DNA of 32,000 nt. It comes from Synechocystis sp. PCC 6803 substr. PCC-P (GTDB lineage: Bacteria; Cyanobacteriota; Cyanobacteriia; Cyanobacteriales; Microcystaceae). The DNA lies in the NCBI RefSeq assembly GCF_000284455.1, contig NC_017039.1, forward strand, positions 2,970,001-3,002,000. The letters are read 5' to 3'. Under the pieces are notes generated by a model, which worked only from the letters and a program-made list of their open reading frames with translations, did no database searches and was not told the DNA's origin. The translations under genes were made by a program, and so were the position numbers. Below are positions 4,914-29,570 of the stretch, piece after piece (the first letter of the stretch is position 1; each line of letters begins with the position of its first letter).

Positions 4914-5990
4914 CTAATCATCCATTTGCCATGGTTCCCGCAGGTTGTTGGCATCGAAAATCTTCTTCGGTCGGAGCACCAACACCACCTGGGCTAAAAT
5001 CTCCCTTTCTGGCTCTGTTTCGCACCATTGAATTGCTACTGTTTCTCCTTGGTTGAGCAGAAAATAACTGCCATCATTCCAAATTTTTTTGCTGCGATCC
5101 ACCACCACCAAAACCTGTTCATCCTTACGGGCTAGGGATTCCGACACTTGCCCTGCCGGACAAAAAATCGCCACCGGATCTTCCGCGGTCAAAATTGCTT
5201 GCCACTGGGGCACCGGCACCACCGCCCCTTCCCCTTGGTAACTAACTAAACCAAAAGGTTCCACCTGTTCTAAAGACTGCACTGCCTGCACCGCCTGGGG
5301 CTGGAGGGGAAAAGTCCCCGCCACTGGAATGAGTCGGGCCGCTTCCTGGTCTTCTTCGAGGCGAAACACCGGCACTAAGGGAGCTTTCCGGCTAGGCTGG
5401 GCGGTTAAATCAGTCAGTAATTTTTCGATCGCCTGACGGGCGTTGGGGGAATGGGCGAATTTTAATCCTTTGACAATTAAACGGGTTCTTTCCGGCAAAT
5501 TCTTTTTCTGCCGGGCTAATTTCCAACATTGATAGGCCAATGCGTCCCCAGGATGGTCGGTAAAACCTTCTGGCAGTTGGGACAGGTAACCAAATTCCTG
5601 AAATGCCTTAGCCAATTCCTTCGCTTCATCGGCAGCCAAATTCTTCTGCTGGGCCTCCACTGCGGCGATCGCCCGTTGTTGATGGTTGAGGATGCGTAGT
5701 TCGTACAGCACGTCACTTTTGGGACCCCGATAATAGGATAGTACCGTTTCATCGATGCCTTGCTTGACCAGACTTTCATACACTTGACTAGCCACAATCA
5801 CCAAATTTTGTTGCACTTTTTGGAAGCCGGACTGCTCAAAAATTTCTTCAGCACCGTAACCTGCCTTCTGTAATTGCTGACATTTTTTACCCCAATCTAC
5901 CCAAGTGCCCTCTTTATGCAACAGGGAACGGATCAGTTCAGCGGCTTCGGCGGCGCTCACAGTAGGGTTGGATTCAGGGGAATGGGTCAT
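4914..5990 (-). CDS. raf1: RuBisCO accumulation factor 1 (Raf1)-like protein (358 aa)
   Basis: Size and an N-terminal helical region (AAELIRSLLHKEGTWVDWGKKCQQLQKAGY...) followed by a beta-rich C-terminal half match my recollection of cyanobacterial Raf1. The identification comes from memory of the family, not from an alignment. Confidence 0.7.
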   Translation of the reverse strand: MTHSPESNPTVSAAEAAELIRSLLHKEGTWVDWGKKCQQLQKAGYGAEEIFEQSGFQKVQQNLVIVASQVYESLVKQGIDETVLSYYRGPKSDVLYELRILNHQQRAIAAVEAQQKNLAADEAKELAKAFQEFGYLSQLPEGFTDHPGDALAYQCWKLARQKKNLPERTRLIVKGLKFAHSPNARQAIEKLLTDLTAQPSRKAPLVPVFRLEEDQEAARLIPVAGTFPLQPQAVQAVQSLEQVEPFGLVSYQGEGAVVPVPQWQAILTAEDPVAIFCPAGQVSESLARKDEQVLVVVDRSKKIWNDGSYFLLNQGETVAIQWCETEPEREILAQVVLVLRPKKIFDANNLREPWQMDD

Positions 5991-6335
5991 CGTTGGCTAA
6001 AAATCTAGGCAATTAAACTACTCTACTTTCATTATCCTGCGTACCAGTAACGTTAAATCTATACATAAAACTTAACATTCTGCTGGCATCGCTATGGAAA
6101 CCCTGACCGTAGCCGAGGTGAAATCTCCCCAGCTCTAAAAATAAACTTATAATTTACAAGTTTTTATAGTCTTTTTGAGTTACTATGATTTCGAAACTTA
6201 TGAATGATTATGCGAATTAGCCCGGGATGTGGATTTGGCAGGATTTTTCCTTCAGCTTCTCTGGTAAGTTACAAAGAACTATTTTTGATGCTAACAATAG
6301 CCTCAATCACCTAGCCCTGACACCCAATTAGTACA

Positions 6336-7724
6336 ATGTCTGATTCGTCTCTGAAACAAGCCCTATTGAATCTTCCACCAATGGCCTATGAGGCTGACAT
6401 AGTAGGGCGTCTGGTTATTCCCGAAATGATGGCTAAGTGGAACTTTTCCTATTCAGATGGCGAAATCGTACAACAATATAAAGTTGGAAATGGCTTACAA
6501 TTCGTTGATGTTGCAGGTAGAAAAAATTACGGCGATGATATCTTTTCCCACACACTGAATGGGGCAGAAATAATTGTTGAAATTAAACGTAACACAATAG
6601 ACTTAAGTTCAGATAGTAAGAACTATCTGGCGGCGGTTGCCCAATTGAAAAGATATTTGGACCCCAGCGCAGCTAATTGCGAAAAAGTAAAGTGGGGAGT
6701 AATCACGAACGGGAAGCATATTCAGCTTTTTCGTCGCCACGGTAGAACGGTTTATCCTTTCACAACTAACATTGAGTTAACCCCAGATAATATCGATGAA
6801 GCAGTTGGTCTAATTGGTAAATATATGGAAAGTGACCACCGAGCTTTAAAGATTGCTTTATACAATAATAAGGGCGGGGTCGGAAAAACTACAACAGCTA
6901 TTAATTTAGCGGCAACTCTTTGCATTCCTAAGCCTGAAGGTTATGCAAAAAGGGTTTTATTAGTTGATTTTGATCCAAATCAAAAAGATTTGACTGATTT
7001 ACTCAAAATAAAACCAAGCAGAATAAGATTGTCTCAATATCTTGAAGACGTTAAGAACAATAAATCCAACAAGCAAGGTATTATTTCCAAATATGAAATT
7101 AAACTAAAAAACTCGAAAGTTTATAACTGCTTTGATGTTATTCCCGCTGATGAAAGTTTTTTGGGTAAATCTTCCCATGAATTGATGAAAGTTAAAAAAG
7201 GTAGTTTACGGGAAACCCTTTCTCAATTTGCCGATGATTACGATTATATTCTGATTGATGCTCCACCGGGGGATAATTACTTTACCCAAGAGGCAATTAC
7301 TGCCGCTGATGTCATTTTAATGCCTTCAAAACATAACAGTATTAGCTCTTTTAAAAATGCCGCAATGGCCATGAAACAAATTTTGCCCCAACTAGGTAGT
7401 GAAAGAAGGGCATTTAATCCGGAATTAGCAGATCCAACACCATTACCAATCTTTTTCAATGGTGAAAATATAACGGATGCATCAAGGAAACAAGCTGAAC
7501 AGGCAATTCAGGAAATAATTGAAACAGTTAAATTGGAAGACCAAATTGATTTAACCAGTTTTTTCTTCCCTAAGTTAACAGATGCCCAAGAAGATAAAGC
7601 AATTTTTACAATTCCTAATTATGCCTATATTTCATCTATAGCATTTTCCTATCGTCCGGCTGTGTTTACCAGCAAAGTTGCTCGTGGTCATTACAAACTA
7701 TTAATCGAGGAATACTTTATCTAA
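6336..7724 (+). CDS. Fusion protein: N-terminal PD-(D/E)xK / HsdR-N-like nuclease-fold domain + C-terminal ParA/MinD-family deviant Walker A ATPase (462 aa)
   Basis: aa 1-170 follow the pattern of the type I restriction R-subunit N-terminal domain: EADIVGRLVIPEMM, FVD58V, IIVE82IK84R, AQLKRYL and WGVITNGKHIQLF. aa 171-462 are ParA-like, with KIALYNNK179GGVGK184TTTAINLA (deviant Walker A), LLVDFDPNQ (A') and YILID308APPG (Walker B). The gene lies in the AT-rich insert. Confidence 0.85.
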   Translation: MSDSSLKQALLNLPPMAYEADIVGRLVIPEMMAKWNFSYSDGEIVQQYKVGNGLQFVDVAGRKNYGDDIFSHTLNGAEIIVEIKRNTIDLSSDSKNYLAAVAQLKRYLDPSAANCEKVKWGVITNGKHIQLFRRHGRTVYPFTTNIELTPDNIDEAVGLIGKYMESDHRALKIALYNNKGGVGKTTTAINLAATLCIPKPEGYAKRVLLVDFDPNQKDLTDLLKIKPSRIRLSQYLEDVKNNKSNKQGIISKYEIKLKNSKVYNCFDVIPADESFLGKSSHELMKVKKGSLRETLSQFADDYDYILIDAPPGDNYFTQEAITAADVILMPSKHNSISSFKNAAMAMKQILPQLGSERRAFNPELADPTPLPIFFNGENITDASRKQAEQAIQEIIETVKLEDQIDLTSFFFPKLTDAQEDKAIFTIPNYAYISSIAFSYRPAVFTSKVARGHYKLLIEEYFI

Positions 7725-8428
7725 TGAAACAAGAAATTGGCGCTCTACTGCATCTTCACGTTGACGAAATTGAACCACTCTTTGCAACAAAATCACATCA
7801 GTTTTTAGTCGCCAAAGCAGCTGAATCAATTAATCTTTGTGGTGGAAGAAATTGGATTCCTTTAGTTGTTAAACAAACGGGAGAAAGTAGTTTTGTCGCT
7901 GTTGCTAATATCTTCACTTTGGCGGCAGTAAGACAAGCAGGGCTTACAAAAATTTGGTGTATCGTTGCCGATGATGATCAGTTTGTACAACAATCTTCCC
8001 AACTTTTAAGCAAGGAAATTGTGCCCAAAGTAAACTTAACAACGGCAACTAGAGATGAAATTAAACTTGCCCTTGACTATTTAATTAATCGTTCGGTTAA
8101 TCCTTTATCTGGAGTAAAAGTTGCTACTTCACTGGATAAAATATCTAATGCTGAACGTAAATATTGGCAAGAAAGTCTCAAGGATGTTGTTGCTCTTAAA
8201 TGTGGTATAACCAATGGCAAAAAATTAGATATATTCAAGGAAATTTTCTATGTTACTCCTGAACCTCGTCTAATTTCTGATGATGATTTGGGGAAATCAG
8301 GGAATGACTTGAAAAAATTAAGTGTGACTGGACTCAGAAAAATTGCTAAAGAGAGAGGACACTCCGGTTATTCCAAGATGAAAAAAGCTGAACTGCTAAT
8401 TTTATTAGCTGATACTGAGGAATCATAG
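7724..8428 (+). CDS. ParB/Srx-fold-like protein (degenerate, no GxxR box) with C-terminal Rho_N/SAP-like helix-extended-helix (234 aa)
   Basis: The start ATG overlaps the upstream TAA stop (TAATG at 7722-7726). The N-terminal VDEIEP...GGRNWIPLVV...FVAVANIFTLAAVRQAGLTKIWCIV follows the ParB N-domain pattern, but ANIFT occupies the place of G-x-x-R. The C-terminal LKKLSVTGLRKIAKERGHSGYSKMKKAELLILL resembles Rho_N. Confidence 0.7.
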   Translation: MKQEIGALLHLHVDEIEPLFATKSHQFLVAKAAESINLCGGRNWIPLVVKQTGESSFVAVANIFTLAAVRQAGLTKIWCIVADDDQFVQQSSQLLSKEIVPKVNLTTATRDEIKLALDYLINRSVNPLSGVKVATSLDKISNAERKYWQESLKDVVALKCGITNGKKLDIFKEIFYVTPEPRLISDDDLGKSGNDLKKLSVTGLRKIAKERGHSGYSKMKKAELLILLADTEES

Positions 8429-8486
8429 CTGACTAATAGATTATAAGGCAATTTTACTATCCATATTCTTGGGAGTAACTCTCAGC

Positions 8487-8795
8487 TTATTCTAGTACTT
8501 GGAGTTGTGATTGATCACGGTGCATCAACTCCACTAAACCCGACCAAACCATAAAGTCTGCTTCATCGTTCAAAATTCCGCGGAAAAATTGCTCATAGAA
8601 TAACTCCGACGACATTTGATATTTTTTTTCAAACTCATCTAGTTCAATTCTCAAATTCAAAATCCCCCGTTGCAGTTCTTGAATCTGGTAATTAATAACA
8701 CTTTGGGCGAATCTTTCATTATCAATGCCACTGCTGAGAATAGTCTTAAGTTTTTGTTCCGTATCTGGTTGTAACGAGAGTTTTATGTCTAGCAT
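8487..8795 (-). CDS. Small helical hypothetical protein (102 aa), antitoxin-like flavour
   Basis: AT-rich ORF convergent with the ParB-like gene and 41 nt downstream of the amidohydrolase gene on the same strand. The segment FEKKYQMSSELFYEQFFRGILNDEADFMVW resembles small cyanobacterial proteins I recall seeing next to toxin genes. No partner toxin is present here. Confidence 0.5.
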   Translation of the reverse strand: MLDIKLSLQPDTEQKLKTILSSGIDNERFAQSVINYQIQELQRGILNLRIELDEFEKKYQMSSELFYEQFFRGILNDEADFMVWSGLVELMHRDQSQLQVLE

Positions 8796-8836
8796 ATTTC
8801 TTTAATTGTTAGAGGTTAATTTGATATTTTAAGTCG

Positions 8837-10057
8837 TTAAATTGCGATATTTTGCCAATATTGCCAGGCAGCATAGCTGAGGGTGACAACCCCCGTTAAA
8901 ATTGCTGCTTCATCGGCTTCAAAGCGAGGATGGTGCAAAGGATGATTCATCTGGCGATCGCCAAAACCAGTACCTAAACGAAACATAGCTCCAGGGGCGT
9001 GTTCTAGGTATAGAGCAAAATCTTCTGCCCCTAGGGATGGTTCAGGAATAATTTGCAGGGCTGATTCTCCCCAGGCTTCCCGCACTGCATTTTCTAACAA
9101 CTTATTTAACTGGGCATCGTTCTGTACCGAAGGTACTCCCCGACGGTAATTGACTTCATATTTCGCCCCATAGGTTTGGCAAACGTTGGCCACAATCCCC
9201 TCAATCCATTGGGGCAGTTGGGCATGGGTTTCGGGATGGAGAGATCGCACTGTGCCGGCCATGCGGACTTGGTCGGCAATCACGTTGGGAGCCCGGCCAC
9301 CGCTAATTTGCCCCAGGGAAAGCACCATGGGCCGGAGGGGATTTTGGGTGCGACTGATGGCTTGTTGCAAAGCAGTAATTACTTGGGCCGCAATCCAAAT
9401 GGCGTCGATCGCTTCGTGGGGCCTAGCACCATGCCCCGATTCCCCTTGGATAAAAATTTCCAGATCATCCGCCGCCGCTGTCAACGCACCGTAACGAATG
9501 CCCACCTGCTGGGCCGGAATAGAAGGAAAAACATGAACGCCTAAAATATGGCTGACCCCCTTCATGGCCCCATCTTGGATCATCCAACTGGCCCCCTGGG
9601 CAATTTCCTCCGCTGGTTGAAATAAAAAGCGCACATCCCCCGGTAACCTATGCCCCATTTGGGACAACACCATGGCCGTACCCAAACCCAAAGTGGTGTG
9701 GATATCGTGGCCACAGGCGTGCATCACCCCCGGATGGCGGGAAGCAAAGGGCAAACTCACCATTTCTTCGATGGGTAACGCATCCATATCGGTACGGATG
9801 GCCAACAGCCGCGGATCGTCTCCTTTGCCGGACAACTGCCCCACCACCCCCGTTTTCCCGATCGCCTCTTCGACATGGAGGCCACAGGAGGACAACACCC
9901 CCGCCACATAGGCCGCCGTTTGATATTCTTGGCCGCTCAACTCGGGATGGGCATGGAGATGGCGACGGATTTCCACCAGCCGGGGCAATAGGGTTTGGGC
10001 TAAATTTTTTAGCTCCACCAGGGCAGCATCGGTGTGTTGGGAAGCAGAGGATAGCAA
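8837..10057 (-). CDS. M20D-family amidohydrolase (N-acyl-L-amino acid amidohydrolase / hippurate hydrolase-like, 406 aa)
   Basis: LHAHPELSGQEYQTAAYV near the N-terminus, then MHACGHD and FQPAEE metal-ligand motifs typical of M20D peptidases. Confidence 0.9.
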   Translation of the reverse strand: MLSSASQHTDAALVELKNLAQTLLPRLVEIRRHLHAHPELSGQEYQTAAYVAGVLSSCGLHVEEAIGKTGVVGQLSGKGDDPRLLAIRTDMDALPIEEMVSLPFASRHPGVMHACGHDIHTTLGLGTAMVLSQMGHRLPGDVRFLFQPAEEIAQGASWMIQDGAMKGVSHILGVHVFPSIPAQQVGIRYGALTAAADDLEIFIQGESGHGARPHEAIDAIWIAAQVITALQQAISRTQNPLRPMVLSLGQISGGRAPNVIADQVRMAGTVRSLHPETHAQLPQWIEGIVANVCQTYGAKYEVNYRRGVPSVQNDAQLNKLLENAVREAWGESALQIIPEPSLGAEDFALYLEHAPGAMFRLGTGFGDRQMNHPLHHPRFEADEAAILTGVVTLSYAAWQYWQNIAI

Positions 10058-25638: not shown

Positions 25639-26753
25639 CTACCCTTCTTCTTTATCCCATTTTTCATGCTTTTGATAATACTTTGACGTTGAATTTAGAG
25701 TCGGATTAAAATTCTCATCATAAAAACAAATCATACAATATGCACACATCACTAATTCCCACCATTTTTGAATTTCCTCACAATGAGTTACCCTAAAATC
25801 TGCCCATCCTAATTCACTTTTGCATTGCTCAAATCCATATTCTATCCATGACCTTACTCCATATATTCTGCCAACTTCTTTATATTTAATATCTGGTATT
25901 CGAGTCATTACAAACCATCCTGCTTTTTCGTCCTCTTTTTCTGTTTCTGTTTTAATTTCCCAATATCTTATTGCGCTTTTTTTACCATAAACTATTTCTC
26001 TGATATACCTATCTTCCTGTTTTCCATCCCATCTTATGTGTTCAAACCTCCTCCACTTATTTGCCCTTACTTTAGCTTCCTTTGGAAGCCAGACCCCATG
26101 ATTGCTCCGGATCCCACTGCATATTCTATTTTTAATTCCTCTACAGCACTGATAAAATTGCTATGGCTTTCTCCATATAAGCTATCTGACACTATTCTTT
26201 TTATTTTAAAACTACTTTCTTCTAGTTCTTTTATTATCTCTACTGCTAATTCTGGCTTTGTTTTATACTTATCTCCCTCTTTTAATCTTTCTTTTGGTTT
26301 AAATACTTTTGATTCTAGAGGAAACGTTACCCCATCGCAGTAAACATAGGCATTTACTGACACTATACCGCTTTCTATTTTTCCTAAATTTCCAATATAT
26401 TGTCTTTTTACATAATCTGTTATTTTCCCTTTTTTGGGGTCTCCTGTTTCATCTATTATTACTATTATTTCTCTTCCTTCTAAAACTTCTAAGATAATAT
26501 TTAATCTTCTTTTTTCTAATTCTTTTAGTTCCCAAGGAGAATCTGTCATGAAATGCAGTAGTCCCTGTTCATTTTTCAATTCTAGTGATGATGCTATTGC
26601 AGGTAAACTCTTTCTTTTTATATCACTTAATATTCCCACAATGATATATCTAAATGACTCATAAGACCTCACTTCTGGAAATATATCTTTATACAGTTCA
26701 CTATATGTGTCTACACACTGTACTGTCTTTTTCGCCTCTCTTGTCTTTGTCAT
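25639..26753 (-). pseudogene. IS701-like DDE transposase interrupted by a -1 frame change near 26112-26120
   Basis: The 228-aa ORF (26753..26067) contains ...LPAIA...IIDETGDPKKG...RQYIGNLGKI...SDSLYG. By hand translation, the frame of the 89-aa ORF (25908..25639) stays open upstream to at least 26160, reading ...SGIRSNHGVWLPKEAKVRANKWRRFEHIRWDGKQEDRYIREIVYGKKSAIRYWEIKTE...MTRIPD. The two frames overlap over 26067-26160, so a single protein of ~375 aa needs a 1-nt correction. Confidence 0.75.
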
Positions 26754-28610: not shown

Positions 28611-29570
28611 TTGATGGGGAACAATTTTGCCCAACTGAAGCGGTTGATTAACTTTTTTCGGACTGTGATTTTACCAGCCCGCATCAGTCAGTTGATATTA
28701 CAGACCTTTCTGAAATGGCAAAAAGATAACTGCATGGATATGGGGGCCGCCCTAGCGTACTATGCCCTCTTTTCCCTGTTTCCCATCTGTTTAGTAATGC
28801 TTAGCATTGCTGGTAGATTATTAGGGGCAGATTCAAATTATTATCTACAGCTCATTAGCTTTGCCCAAAATATTTTACCGGAACAACCCTTTAAGGTTTT
28901 TCAGCAAGCTTTGACTAATCTTAACCAAAGTAGCTTTAGTGCTGGACTCATTGGTTTTGGTATTTTGGTTCTCACTGCTAGTCGTATTTTTGATGCTTTG
29001 AATCAAAGTGTAAAGAAAATCTGGTCGGTGGTTCATCAGCCCAAGGAAAATATTGGAGTTAAGCACCACGCCTTCAATTTTATCAGGAATAAAATCCTCG
29101 CTTTTTTGCTGGTTTTAAGTACAGTGATGGTATTTTTGCTATCCATATTTGCCAATTTAGCCGCTAAAATTTTCCTCACCGTACTGGCGGAATTTGGACA
29201 GTCCATTCCTTGGGTTACCTTTGACAGTTTAGGATTAATTACCACTCTACAAACTAGTATTTCTTACTTTCTCATTACCGTAGTTATTATCACTCTATTC
29301 AAAGTTTTGCCTCCCGTCCGTCTGCAATGGTGGGATATTTTTCCCGGCGCAATTTTAACTGCGGCCACCATGATGGCCTTACAAAATGCAGTTGGCAGTG
29401 GCATTATTCGCATTGGTGAAAACTTACAAGCTTACGGTGTGGTGGGCAATGTAATGGTATTGTTATTGTGGATTTATTTGATTTTTCAGGTGTTTTTTAT
29501 TGGTTGCGAGTTTACCTTTGTATTTACCTATATTTTTGGTAGTCGTCACCAGAAAGAAAAACCATTTTAG
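28611..29570 (+). CDS. YihY/BrkB-family inner membrane protein (319 aa; the ATG at 28614 is the probable start)
   Basis: The GAALAYYALFSLFPICLVML motif and about six hydrophobic helices are typical of the YihY/virulence factor BrkB family. The gene is AT-rich and I saw no HIP1 site in it. Confidence 0.85.
   Translation: MMGNNFAQLKRLINFFRTVILPARISQLILQTFLKWQKDNCMDMGAALAYYALFSLFPICLVMLSIAGRLLGADSNYYLQLISFAQNILPEQPFKVFQQALTNLNQSSFSAGLIGFGILVLTASRIFDALNQSVKKIWSVVHQPKENIGVKHHAFNFIRNKILAFLLVLSTVMVFLLSIFANLAAKIFLTVLAEFGQSIPWVTFDSLGLITTLQTSISYFLITVVIITLFKVLPPVRLQWWDIFPGAILTAATMMALQNAVGSGIIRIGENLQAYGVVGNVMVLLLWIYLIFQVFFIGCEFTFVFTYIFGSRHQKEKPF

Follow-up and report, generated by a model that had tools for sequence, protein, structure and literature searches.

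A mobile cyanobacterial gene pair encoding a putative nuclease-ParA fusion and a ParB-like partner, with a possible role in genetic conflict: slr0105-slr0106 of Synechocystis sp. PCC 6803

Introduction

What is a gene pair that looks in part like a plasmid partition locus and in part like a restriction enzyme doing on the chromosome of a cyanobacterium? The question is raised by a stretch of 32,000 nucleotides from Synechocystis sp. PCC 6803 substr. PCC-P (contig NC_017039.1, positions 2,970,001 to 3,002,000), all of which was analysed and which we call the window. Between raf1 and a gene of the M20 family it carries slr0105 (gene A), slr0106 (gene B) and the convergent open reading frame (ORF) sll0101 (ORF C). 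An earlier description made from the letters of this DNA (the sequence-only reading) saw here a self-contained three-gene insert, acquired horizontally and of a kind seen in defence systems. We find that the inserted unit consists of A and B, that the two genes form a mobile operon found in hundreds of cyanobacterial species, and that a role in genetic conflict is the explanation that we tentatively prefer.

An AT-rich two-gene cassette beside raf1

The abrupt AT-rich island described in the sequence-only reading is borne out by the composition of the window. Between ~6000 and 8850 the guanine-plus-cytosine (GC) content is 0.30-0.42, against 0.48-0.58 in the flanks (means of 0.36 for the island and 0.48 for the remaining window), and the 2.5-kb stretch with the lowest GC of the 32 kb begins at ~6350. 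GC at third codon positions (GC3) is 0.30 in slr0105 and 0.24 in slr0106, compared with 0.50 ± 0.08 in the 23 other long ORFs. The three ORFs of the island are present as they had been described (Table 1); sequence identity is 100% between ORF B and slr0106 and between ORF C and sll0101, and the tag slr0105 was given to gene A from its adjacency to slr0106 and the co-listing of the two in a paper. The stop of gene A and the start of gene B share one base (TAATG), and GAGGA lies upstream.

The same reading had pointed to a gap in the distribution of HIP1. None of the 30 HIP1 occurrences in the window falls within 5672-8954, but by itself this gap is weak (P(0) ~0.046, with two further gaps of ~3 kb in the window); it gains meaning at the level of the family, because HIP1 density across 78 related loci is 0.34/kb inside A-B against 0.99/kb in the flanks, a three-fold depletion.

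The limits of the insert are sharp. Nucleotide homology to two Synechocystis-like genomes (L085 and L086) breaks off exactly at the raf1 start codon (5990) and restarts at the stop codon of C (8487), and the left limit against L085, L086 and the metagenomic relative L087 lies at 5990-5993. The inserted unit is 5991-8486, that is, 2,496 bp with two genes, A and B. Its non-coding left end, which is 87% identical between PCC 6803 and PCC 6714, presumably contains the promoters of both raf1 and gene A; a sigma-70 consensus scan of 5991-6335 found no promoter there, a search of the same interval for a repeat array found none, and the published candidate LexA motif TTTTG(A/T)TNAC was not found upstream of gene A. 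An Rfam scan of the cassette gave no match, and a search for terminal inverted or direct repeats at its ends gave only short matches at chance level.

Table 1. Features of the cassette and of the adjoining ORF C, in window coordinates
Feature	Position	Strand	Description
Cassette left end	5991..6335	.	345-bp non-coding, between divergent raf1 and gene A
Gene A (slr0105)	6336..7724	+	462 aa; predicted PD-(D/E)xK nuclease domain fused to ParA/Soj-type ATPase
Predicted PD-(D/E)xK domain, restriction-endonuclease type	6336..6839	+	A residues 1-168
Putative catalytic signature	6507-6509 (D58); 6579-6581 (E82); 6585-6587 (K84)		E43, D58, E82, K84, Q103
ParA/Soj-like deviant Walker A ATPase	6840..7724	+	A residues 169-462
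ATPase motifs	6870-6890 (Walker A)		Walker A K179-GGVGK184-T185; D211xD213; Walker B D308
Gene B (slr0106)	7724..8428	+	234 aa; ParB-like putative adaptor; start overlaps A stop by 1 nt
B ParB/Srx N-domain	7724-8008	+	B residues 1-95
B helical middle domain		+	B residues ~100-180; disordered linker after
B Rho_N/SAP-like tail	8306-8398	+	B residues 195-225; Rho_N 1.5e-5
Cassette right end	8429..8486	.	Short spacer; terminator-like hairpin 8469-8485
ORF C (sll0101)	8487..8795	-	102 aa; GC 0.37; outside A-B unit

Protein A: a predicted nuclease fused to a ParA-type ATPase

The fusion of a nuclease fold to ParA that the sequence-only reading had proposed for A agrees with what profiles and conservation indicate. 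Pfam matches of the N-domains were to HSDR_N_2 in 17 of 19 homologues (best 5e-8), to HSDR_N (7) and to MmeI_N (2), and the predicted topology of the domain is alpha-beta-beta-beta-alpha-beta, strand 2 carrying D58 and strand 3 carrying E82-x-K84. Across 78 genomic sequences D58 is kept in 77, and E82, K84 and Q103 in all 78. The domain bears the motif of the PD-(D/E)xK restriction-type fold, to which it belongs, and metal-dependent DNA cleavage is predicted for it. Foldseek output for the AlphaFold (AF2) model of A (predicted local distance difference test score, pLDDT, 86; predicted template modelling score, pTM, 0.89) was dominated by the ParA domain, and the nuclease fold is assigned from the profiles and the predicted topology. 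Profile searches of the N-domains of A and of B against Protein Data Bank (PDB) sequences gave no significant match.

The ATPase half matches AAA_31 (1.8e-28) and, in profile searches of the PDB, Soj, ParA and McdA; Foldseek matches it to Soj (1wcv, 5.8e-12, target TM 0.74), McdA (6nop, 5.8e-11) and ParA (8ray). The Walker residues K179, K184, D211, D213 and D308 are each conserved in 78/78 sequences. By motif and fold A fits the ParA/Soj/MinD class of deviant Walker A ATPases, whose motifs would imply ATP-dependent dimerisation and non-specific DNA binding.

The nuclease subfamily is small and nearly confined to this architecture: 1.84 billion proteins yielded 130 representatives, nearly all of ~440-500 aa (the same fusion) or fragments. 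A few relatives carry further domains. One (P0252) joins a superfamily 1 (SF1) helicase to the nuclease and ParA, and a second (P0275) has DUF559, an SF1 helicase, the nuclease and ParA; both helicases match MkoA/MkoC of the Mokosh system (E 4e-62 and 6e-41, respectively). A third (P0265) joins HEPN_Swt1 to the nuclease and ParA, and the nearest relative of the nuclease domain without ParA is an Eco57I-type restriction-modification enzyme (P0329). A 739-aa protein (P0243) was tested as a fusion of A and B and rejected.

Both genes of the pair are under purifying selection and functional, the ratio of nonsynonymous to synonymous substitution rates (dN/dS) between PCC 6803 and PCC 6714 being 0.09 for A and 0.12 for B (0.14 for C), compared with 0.06-0.19 for neighbouring housekeeping genes. 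The PCC 6714 orthologue of A (L083 7956-8000, corresponding to window 6336-6380) is annotated 15 codons short, as a protein of 447 aa; since the upstream ATG and the N-terminal MSDSSLKQA... are conserved there, the annotated start is probably wrong.

Protein B: a ParB-like partner that appears to lack the CTP switch

That the partner of A is ParB-like and translationally coupled to it, as had also been proposed, is supported by structure and by profiles. The AF2 model of B (pLDDT 89.6) matches Noc, ParB, KorB, PadC and sulfiredoxin in Foldseek (E 2e-6 to 5e-4, with ParB/Noc at 2e-6), and 17 of 18 B N-domains match Pfam ParB_N; B is called ParB-like because of these matches. The Foldseek alignments to ParB and Noc span 230-250 columns including the helical domain, but with a high root-mean-square deviation, and no helix-turn-helix (HTH) match was found in B at the sequence level.

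Across the 78 sequences, the positions of B at the box that binds cytidine triphosphate (CTP) read G/A-N-S/A-F, with an arginine in none. An hhalign alignment that places A-N-I-F-T-L-A-A of B opposite G-E-R-R-F-R-A-A of Spo0J is a lead and no proof. The GxxRxxA / GERRxR CTP-binding box seems to be gone from B, and with the loss of its arginines B would be unable to act as a CTP-dependent sliding clamp. The C-terminus is a helix pair of Rho_N/SAP-like type and not the C-terminal dimerisation domain of ParB. Homologues of 312 aa have the helical middle domain duplicated, and one homologue has a helix-hairpin-helix (HhH) of the ComEA type in place of the tail; the duplication and the exchanged tail fit a modular DNA-binding adaptor.

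In public annotation the proteins of the pair appear as 'hypothetical', as 'BcsQ' or, wrongly, as 'Rho termination factor', and slr0106 has been handled as a Rho termination factor in the literature (PMC12454622). We reject this identity for B: its likeness to Rho is a 31-residue C-terminal Rho_N/SAP-like motif, the rest is ParB-like, and there is no RecA-type ATPase hexamer domain.

Distribution, pairing and mobility

A scan of one genome per species (185,579 species) found 457 loci with relatives of A; pairing and neighbours were counted in the best 80 of these, and 78 sequences served for conservation. The 80 loci are all effectively cyanobacterial, including two on contigs labelled as Actinomycetota and Rhizobium metagenome-assembled genomes, whose HIP1 density (0.9-1.4/kb) points to misbinned cyanobacterial DNA. 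In 78 of the 80, the gene that directly follows A is a homologue of B; in the remaining two the contig breaks off just behind A. None of C, raf1 and the M20 gene adjoins A-B in any other locus (raf1 in 0/78), and any one neighbour family is shared by 11 of the 80 at most. Because of this pairing, the absence of C, raf1 and the M20 gene, and the lack of a recurrent third gene, we regard A-B as a two-gene operon.

As in the window, the pattern elsewhere is that of a solitary cassette between ordinary genes. In 69 of 73 loci A-B has a lower GC content than its flanks (mean difference 5.5 GC points), and the 141 immediate neighbours of the pair are mostly housekeeping genes, with five tyrosine integrases, four PIN and two XisI among them; the PADLOC matches among these neighbours are mostly to one SNF2 helicase. 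Beyond chromosomes, full-length A was found in two of 72,556 plasmid records, both of them small plasmids of Nostoc sp. UHCC 0870, and on one of 2.9 million viral contigs. Each of the two plasmids has in addition ParM and genes for ParA-type ATPases, alone or together with ParB, and a small recombinase gene adjoins A-B; ParDE and other toxin-antitoxin (TA) genes are likewise found on them. The viral contig has the look of a temperate element and carries a Rad52-like gene along with two HTH-ImmA/IrrE genes. A-B occasionally travels on plasmids, and once on a temperate-element contig, and stands at times beside integrases. Overall, it is horizontally mobile, cyanobacterial and non-syntenic, and occurs in hundreds of species. 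A core locus, which the sequence-only reading had named as the ordinary explanation, does not describe it, since the pair is widespread yet neither syntenic nor compositionally typical.

Allelic states of the raf1 interval and the origin of ORF C

Comparison with close relatives shows how the pair came to lie beside raf1. In L085 and L086 the interval reads M20, GMT-wHTH, DUF5131, a HicA pair, C, TumE and raf1; the TumE gene overlaps the end of C and takes up ~460 bp where the window has A-B. Two metagenomic relatives (L087 and L088) have a Type ISP restriction gene, C and raf1, with C and raf1 ~108 bp apart. From the homology breakpoints and these gene orders, the interval has three allelic states with sharp breakpoints: empty, with TumE, and with A-B. 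The A-B allele is also found in PCC 6714, in full synteny with PCC 6803 and with raf1 adjacent, which places the replacement before the two strains diverged. In the more distant Synechocystis sp. LKSZ1, A-B stands at another location, where its neighbours are two DUF29 genes and a gene for a DUF559 endonuclease. Relatives have HicA, TumE and a Type ISP restriction gene in the raf1 interval, which is a variable hotspot of TA and restriction genes, and the rubisco-related neighbour raf1 is a lineage-specific accident of insertion. Together with the variable contexts and the AT-rich composition across the family, the three states bear out the proposed horizontal acquisition.

ORF C, in contrast to what had been suggested, is not a third member of the module. 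Its homologues form only 8 clusters, all Synechocystis-like, it accompanies A-B only in PCC 6803 and PCC 6714, and in relatives it pairs with TumE, a member of the TumE-TumA toxin-antitoxin superfamily that has been validated experimentally (PMC10584680). C matches the NCBIfam TumA model NF045776 (1.6e-7, but with 31.5 bits against a cut-off of 100) and PADLOC PDC-M44A (1.8e-8), the similarity being limited to residues 48-86. C looks like an orphan antitoxin of TumA-like type, the remainder of a TumE/TumA pair in which A-B replaced the toxin gene; we call it an orphan because TumE adjoins it in L085 and L086 but is absent from the window, where a search for a TumE remnant found none. The likeness to TumE-TumA concerns ORF C only, which in relatives lies upstream of TumE and overlaps it; its score below the NCBIfam cut-off and the missing toxin gene set it apart.

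In L085 a 3-kb block with GMT-wHTH, DUF5131 and HicAB lies between M20 and C. Its flanks (2902-2960 and 5847-6000, corresponding to window 8635-8693 and 8796-8965) hold a 59-bp fragment of C and a duplicated M20 3' end, which suggests that the hotspot received another, separate insertion in which the target region was duplicated. DUF29 genes lie near the pair both in LKSZ1 (L084 5349-6430, the two copies mentioned above) and on a 12.6-kb Pseudanabaena plasmid (L169 6532-6984).

Elsewhere in the window, the most AT-rich ORF (26067-26753, minus strand; GC 0.32, GC3 0.22) encodes a DDE_5 transposase fragment or insertion sequence (IS) element (1e-25), foreign DNA that is unrelated to A-B.

Expression

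Both genes are expressed. Slr0105 has been detected by difference gel electrophoresis (PMC4877387), and Slr0106 has been quantified in published proteomics. In a lexA mutant slr0105 and slr0106 are de-repressed 4-8-fold; the same study describes Synechocystis LexA as not being an SOS regulator, with DNA-metabolism genes outside its control (PMC4759255). In strain SAW041, which carries a foreign self-replicating plasmid, Slr0106 protein was up more than 8-fold together with CRISPR2/3 proteins (PMC4526308). For a role in conflict these data are circumstantial.

A 'BrkB' protein was also up more than 8-fold in SAW041 (PMC4526308). The window has a moderately AT-rich gene for a BrkB-family membrane protein at 28611-29570 (plus strand, GC 0.39), which may be the gene of that protein.

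Discussion: a proposed nuclease switched by ParA dimerisation

We favour, cautiously, the explanation that slr0105-slr0106 is a mobile ParA/ParB-derived, ATP-gated DNA nuclease acting in genetic conflict, with plasmid or other foreign DNA as its likeliest target. In this mechanism, A would bind ATP through its intact deviant Walker A motif and form a nucleotide-sandwich dimer of the ParA/Soj type on DNA, as its motifs and fold suggest. The dimer would unite two PD-(D/E)xK domains on the duplex, and cleavage would follow the ATP state. B would bind DNA through its helical domain and its SAP/Rho_N tail and contact A, and it may either target A to DNA or turn A off via ATP hydrolysis, as ParB does for ParA. 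In the more specific form of the idea, the ParB-fold adaptor without a CTP switch would recognise incoming plasmid or phage DNA and license cutting by the ATP-dimerised ParA-nuclease, which would make the pair a cyanobacterial immune system; we think this version possible but rather doubtful.

A role in conflict is supported by the domains, the conserved active sites, the pairing of A with B, the insertion into a hotspot, the non-syntenic, AT-rich and HIP1-poor distribution, and purifying selection. The conflict-type relatives, namely the fusions with a Mokosh-type helicase, DUF559 and HEPN_Swt1 and the Eco57I-type enzyme, would also count in its favour.

Several observations pull the other way. 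The neighbours of A-B are mostly housekeeping genes, with no clear enrichment in defence islands among the 141, and of the proposal that this is a defence-type module what stands is that the role is plausible, judged from sequence. Searches of PADLOC-DB 2.0 gave only matches of P-loop length for A (PDC-M28B, 48 aa, 3.8e-4; mad8) and none for B, in keeping with the earlier failure to recognise a named defence system, and the plasmid relatives of the pair likewise match no PADLOC model beyond the P-loop. In searches of the literature, neither a functional study of slr0105 or slr0106 nor an account of a nuclease-ParA/ParB-like pair turned up. The fusions with Mokosh-type helicases and with HEPN are each represented by a single cluster, the nuclease activity of A is a prediction, conserved PD-(D/E)xK residues can serve DNA binding, and the induction in SAW041 is a hint from a single uncontrolled comparison. 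A further point comes from a plasmid of Pseudanabaena and is taken up below with the explanation that it favours.

Partition and positioning

The pair could instead be a non-canonical device for DNA partition, maintenance or positioning, in which A would be a large ParA resembling those of type Ia, its N-terminal domain of PD-(D/E)xK fold serving DNA binding or regulation, and B a centromere-binding adaptor; the chromosomal pairs would segregate chromosome copies or unrecognised cargo in cyanobacteria that otherwise lack classical ParABS. We consider this unlikely, though it is the best of the alternatives. The order of parA then parB with translational coupling, the intact ParA motifs, the ParB fold and the long-term purifying selection in chromosomes all agree with it, as does the reported absence of classical ParABS from cyanobacteria (PMC7766704).

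Plasmids provide evidence in both directions. Besides the pair itself, a diverged subfamily of long ParA proteins (458-480 aa), paired with a B-like protein, is found on cyanobacterial plasmids: two of Pseudanabaena (12.6 kb and 226 kb), Leptolyngbya pLBA, Acaryochloris pREB8 and a third Nostoc plasmid. Their N-domains align with that of A at an hhalign probability of 96-99% and keep the PD...ExK motif. Occurrence of the pair or its diverged relatives on six cyanobacterial plasmids would suit partition, and on Nostoc plasmids the pair adjoins a small site-specific recombinase gene, as is often so with stability modules. On the 12.6-kb Pseudanabaena plasmid (ABRG53g) the diverged pair is the sole par-like pair, and the octamer GTAACAGN clusters ~400 bp downstream of the B-like gene, B' (L169 411-713). 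This layout, a sole par-like pair with repeats downstream, resembles a partition locus of type Ia; it is the best evidence for partition and counts against a nuclease acting in conflict.

The other five of these six plasmids, however, have conventional ParA/ParB or ParM genes already. On pREB8 an array of GTAAGTCN follows B' (L170 7073-7810), but its immediate downstream neighbour is a conventional small ParA gene, and the array may be part of that system; on the four other plasmids no array was found next to the pair. Searches for GTAAC/G arrays and for motif-agnostic 6-mer arrays found no centromere-like array near the 78 chromosomal A-B loci, nor in the window, PCC 6714 or LKSZ1. Across the 78 loci the share of windows with at least 6 copies of a word was 2.5% close to the operon and 1.8% at a distance, which is no enrichment, and the upstream and downstream sequences of 76 loci, searched for a cis motif in common, yielded only HIP1 and AT-rich words. 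Multiple copies in one Nostoc cell argue against a single shared centromere system. Partition also leaves other features at odds with it: B lacks the CTP motif and the ParB dimerisation domain, an invariant D/ExK would not be expected of a domain that only binds DNA, the pair is distributed patchily and without synteny, the AT-rich cassette is solitary with no other element genes, and relatives are fused to HEPN and to Mokosh-type helicases. As for a standard plasmid partition cassette, which the sequence-only reading had offered as another ordinary explanation, the two full-length plasmid copies, both accompanied by other par systems, give a different picture.

Some further observations on these plasmids and repeats may be recorded. 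The repeats of ABRG53g and pREB8 are 8-bp words with a common GTAAC/GTAAG core on two unrelated plasmids, and may be centromere or iteron arrays. In Nostoc sp. UHCC 0870 the pair or its diverged form is present on three plasmids (L081, L082 and L172), each with conventional ParA/ParB or ParM and, no more than a few kb from the pair, a gene for a small site-specific recombinase. Tandem repeats occur near some chromosomal A-B loci, such as AGCTAAG x9.7 (L060 4170-4237), ACTGATA x7.7 (L006 2419-2472) and a perfect tandem repeat of a 21-mer x10.8 (L051 7008-7234); these heptamer and 21-mer repeats are presumably ordinary cyanobacterial short tandemly repeated repetitive (STRR) sequences, and the heptamer type makes up the few arrays that the array searches returned near chromosomal loci.

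Addiction, repair and carboxysome positioning

It is improbable, in our judgement, that the cassette is a selfish addiction module similar to toxin-antitoxin systems, with A as a toxic ATP-dependent nuclease and B as its co-translated neutraliser, kept because its loss kills the cell. The compact, obligate and translationally coupled two-gene form would suit such a module, as would its AT-rich, patchy and mobile character, and the insertion went into a toxin-antitoxin hotspot with exact replacement of the TumE gene; PIN toxins are among the neighbours of the family, and the plasmid copies reside alongside ParDE and other TA genes. However, dN/dS as low as in housekeeping genes and motifs kept across ~40% divergence suggest a benefit at the level of the host, a TA pair would be expected to have smaller and simpler proteins, and toxicity of A is a supposition only. 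Because the boundary between TA and defence systems is blurred, this explanation also overlaps with the nuclease in genetic conflict that we favour.

Least credible of all, and to our minds very unlikely, is a housekeeping role, either in DNA repair and recombination under LexA or in rubisco/carboxysome positioning akin to McdAB, since the features that might suggest it (de-repression of both genes in the lexA mutant, the nuclease-plus-ATPase architecture, McdA among the structural matches, and raf1 adjacent in PCC 6803 and PCC 6714) are met by a LexA that does not control DNA-metabolism genes in Synechocystis (PMC4759255), the missing candidate LexA motif upstream of A, a raf1 adjacency that arose by insertion and is seen in 0/78 other loci, and a patchy, mobile distribution that does not fit a core function. 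The carboxysome idea, prompted by raf1, was rejected on that neighbour count and on the ParB fold of B.

Comparison with known systems

The comparison with ParABS loci of type Ia (P1 ParA/ParB, F SopA/SopB) draws partly on general knowledge. Like those loci, the pair has coupled genes in the order parA then parB and a deviant Walker A signature lysine; A is one of the large ParA proteins, extended at the N-terminus by a domain of ~165 aa, and B has a ParB/Srx N-domain followed by a helical domain of the DNA-binding type. Unlike in type Ia, the N-terminal extension of A is a putative PD-(D/E)xK domain with an invariant signature and not an HTH, B lacks the GERR arginines and has a SAP/Rho_N tail in place of the dimerisation domain, no centromere repeats adjoin the pair in the chromosomal clade, and the pair is a solitary cassette at variable chromosomal sites.

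Wadjet (JetABCD) and Lamassu re-use chromosome-maintenance ATPases together with a nuclease against plasmids and phages; they are based on structural maintenance of chromosomes (SMC) proteins and have 3-4 genes. The concept is similar, a mobile system with a DNA-organising ATPase coupled to a nuclease effector, for which action on foreign DNA is here proposed, but A-B is based on ParA and ParB, has two genes, and is unrelated to them in sequence or fold. In the two Mokosh-like relatives the N-terminal SF1 helicase matches MkoA/MkoC and the nuclease-ParA core stands in the place of the effector, which in Mokosh is a phospholipase D (PLD) nuclease; slr0105, by contrast, has no helicase, and no Mokosh model matches A or B.

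With Type I and Type IIG restriction enzymes (HsdR N-terminal nuclease; Eco57I/MmeI class) the pair shares the HSDR_N_2/HSDR_N/MmeI_N domain, whose nearest relative without ParA is of the Eco57I type, and the coupling of an ATPase to a predicted PD-(D/E)xK domain, whereas its ATPase would be a dimerising switch of the ParA type and not an SF2 (superfamily 2) translocase, and it has no methyltransferase or specificity subunit. McdA/McdB is also a cyanobacterial ParA-type ATPase with a small partner, and McdA is a structural match of A, but B has a ParB fold and A carries the putative nuclease domain.

Significance

The pair sits in the main cyanobacterial model organism, is expressed there, and is conserved in hundreds of species; tractable Synechocystis makes both outcomes, defence or partition, directly testable. 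If partition or positioning were true, this would be the first segregation device of the ParAB type for a phylum thought to be without one, with a puzzlingly conserved nuclease site. If instead the pair restricts foreign DNA, it would represent a new mechanistic class of defence, with ParA dimerisation as the switch of a nuclease and a ParB without its CTP motif, and a second case in which chromosome-maintenance machinery has been re-used for immunity. As an immune system it would be the ParABS-derived counterpart of condensin-derived Wadjet and could be part of the reason why replicative plasmids are poorly stable in Synechocystis and other cyanobacteria, and restriction by this pair would be of practical use for plasmid-based cyanobacterial engineering.

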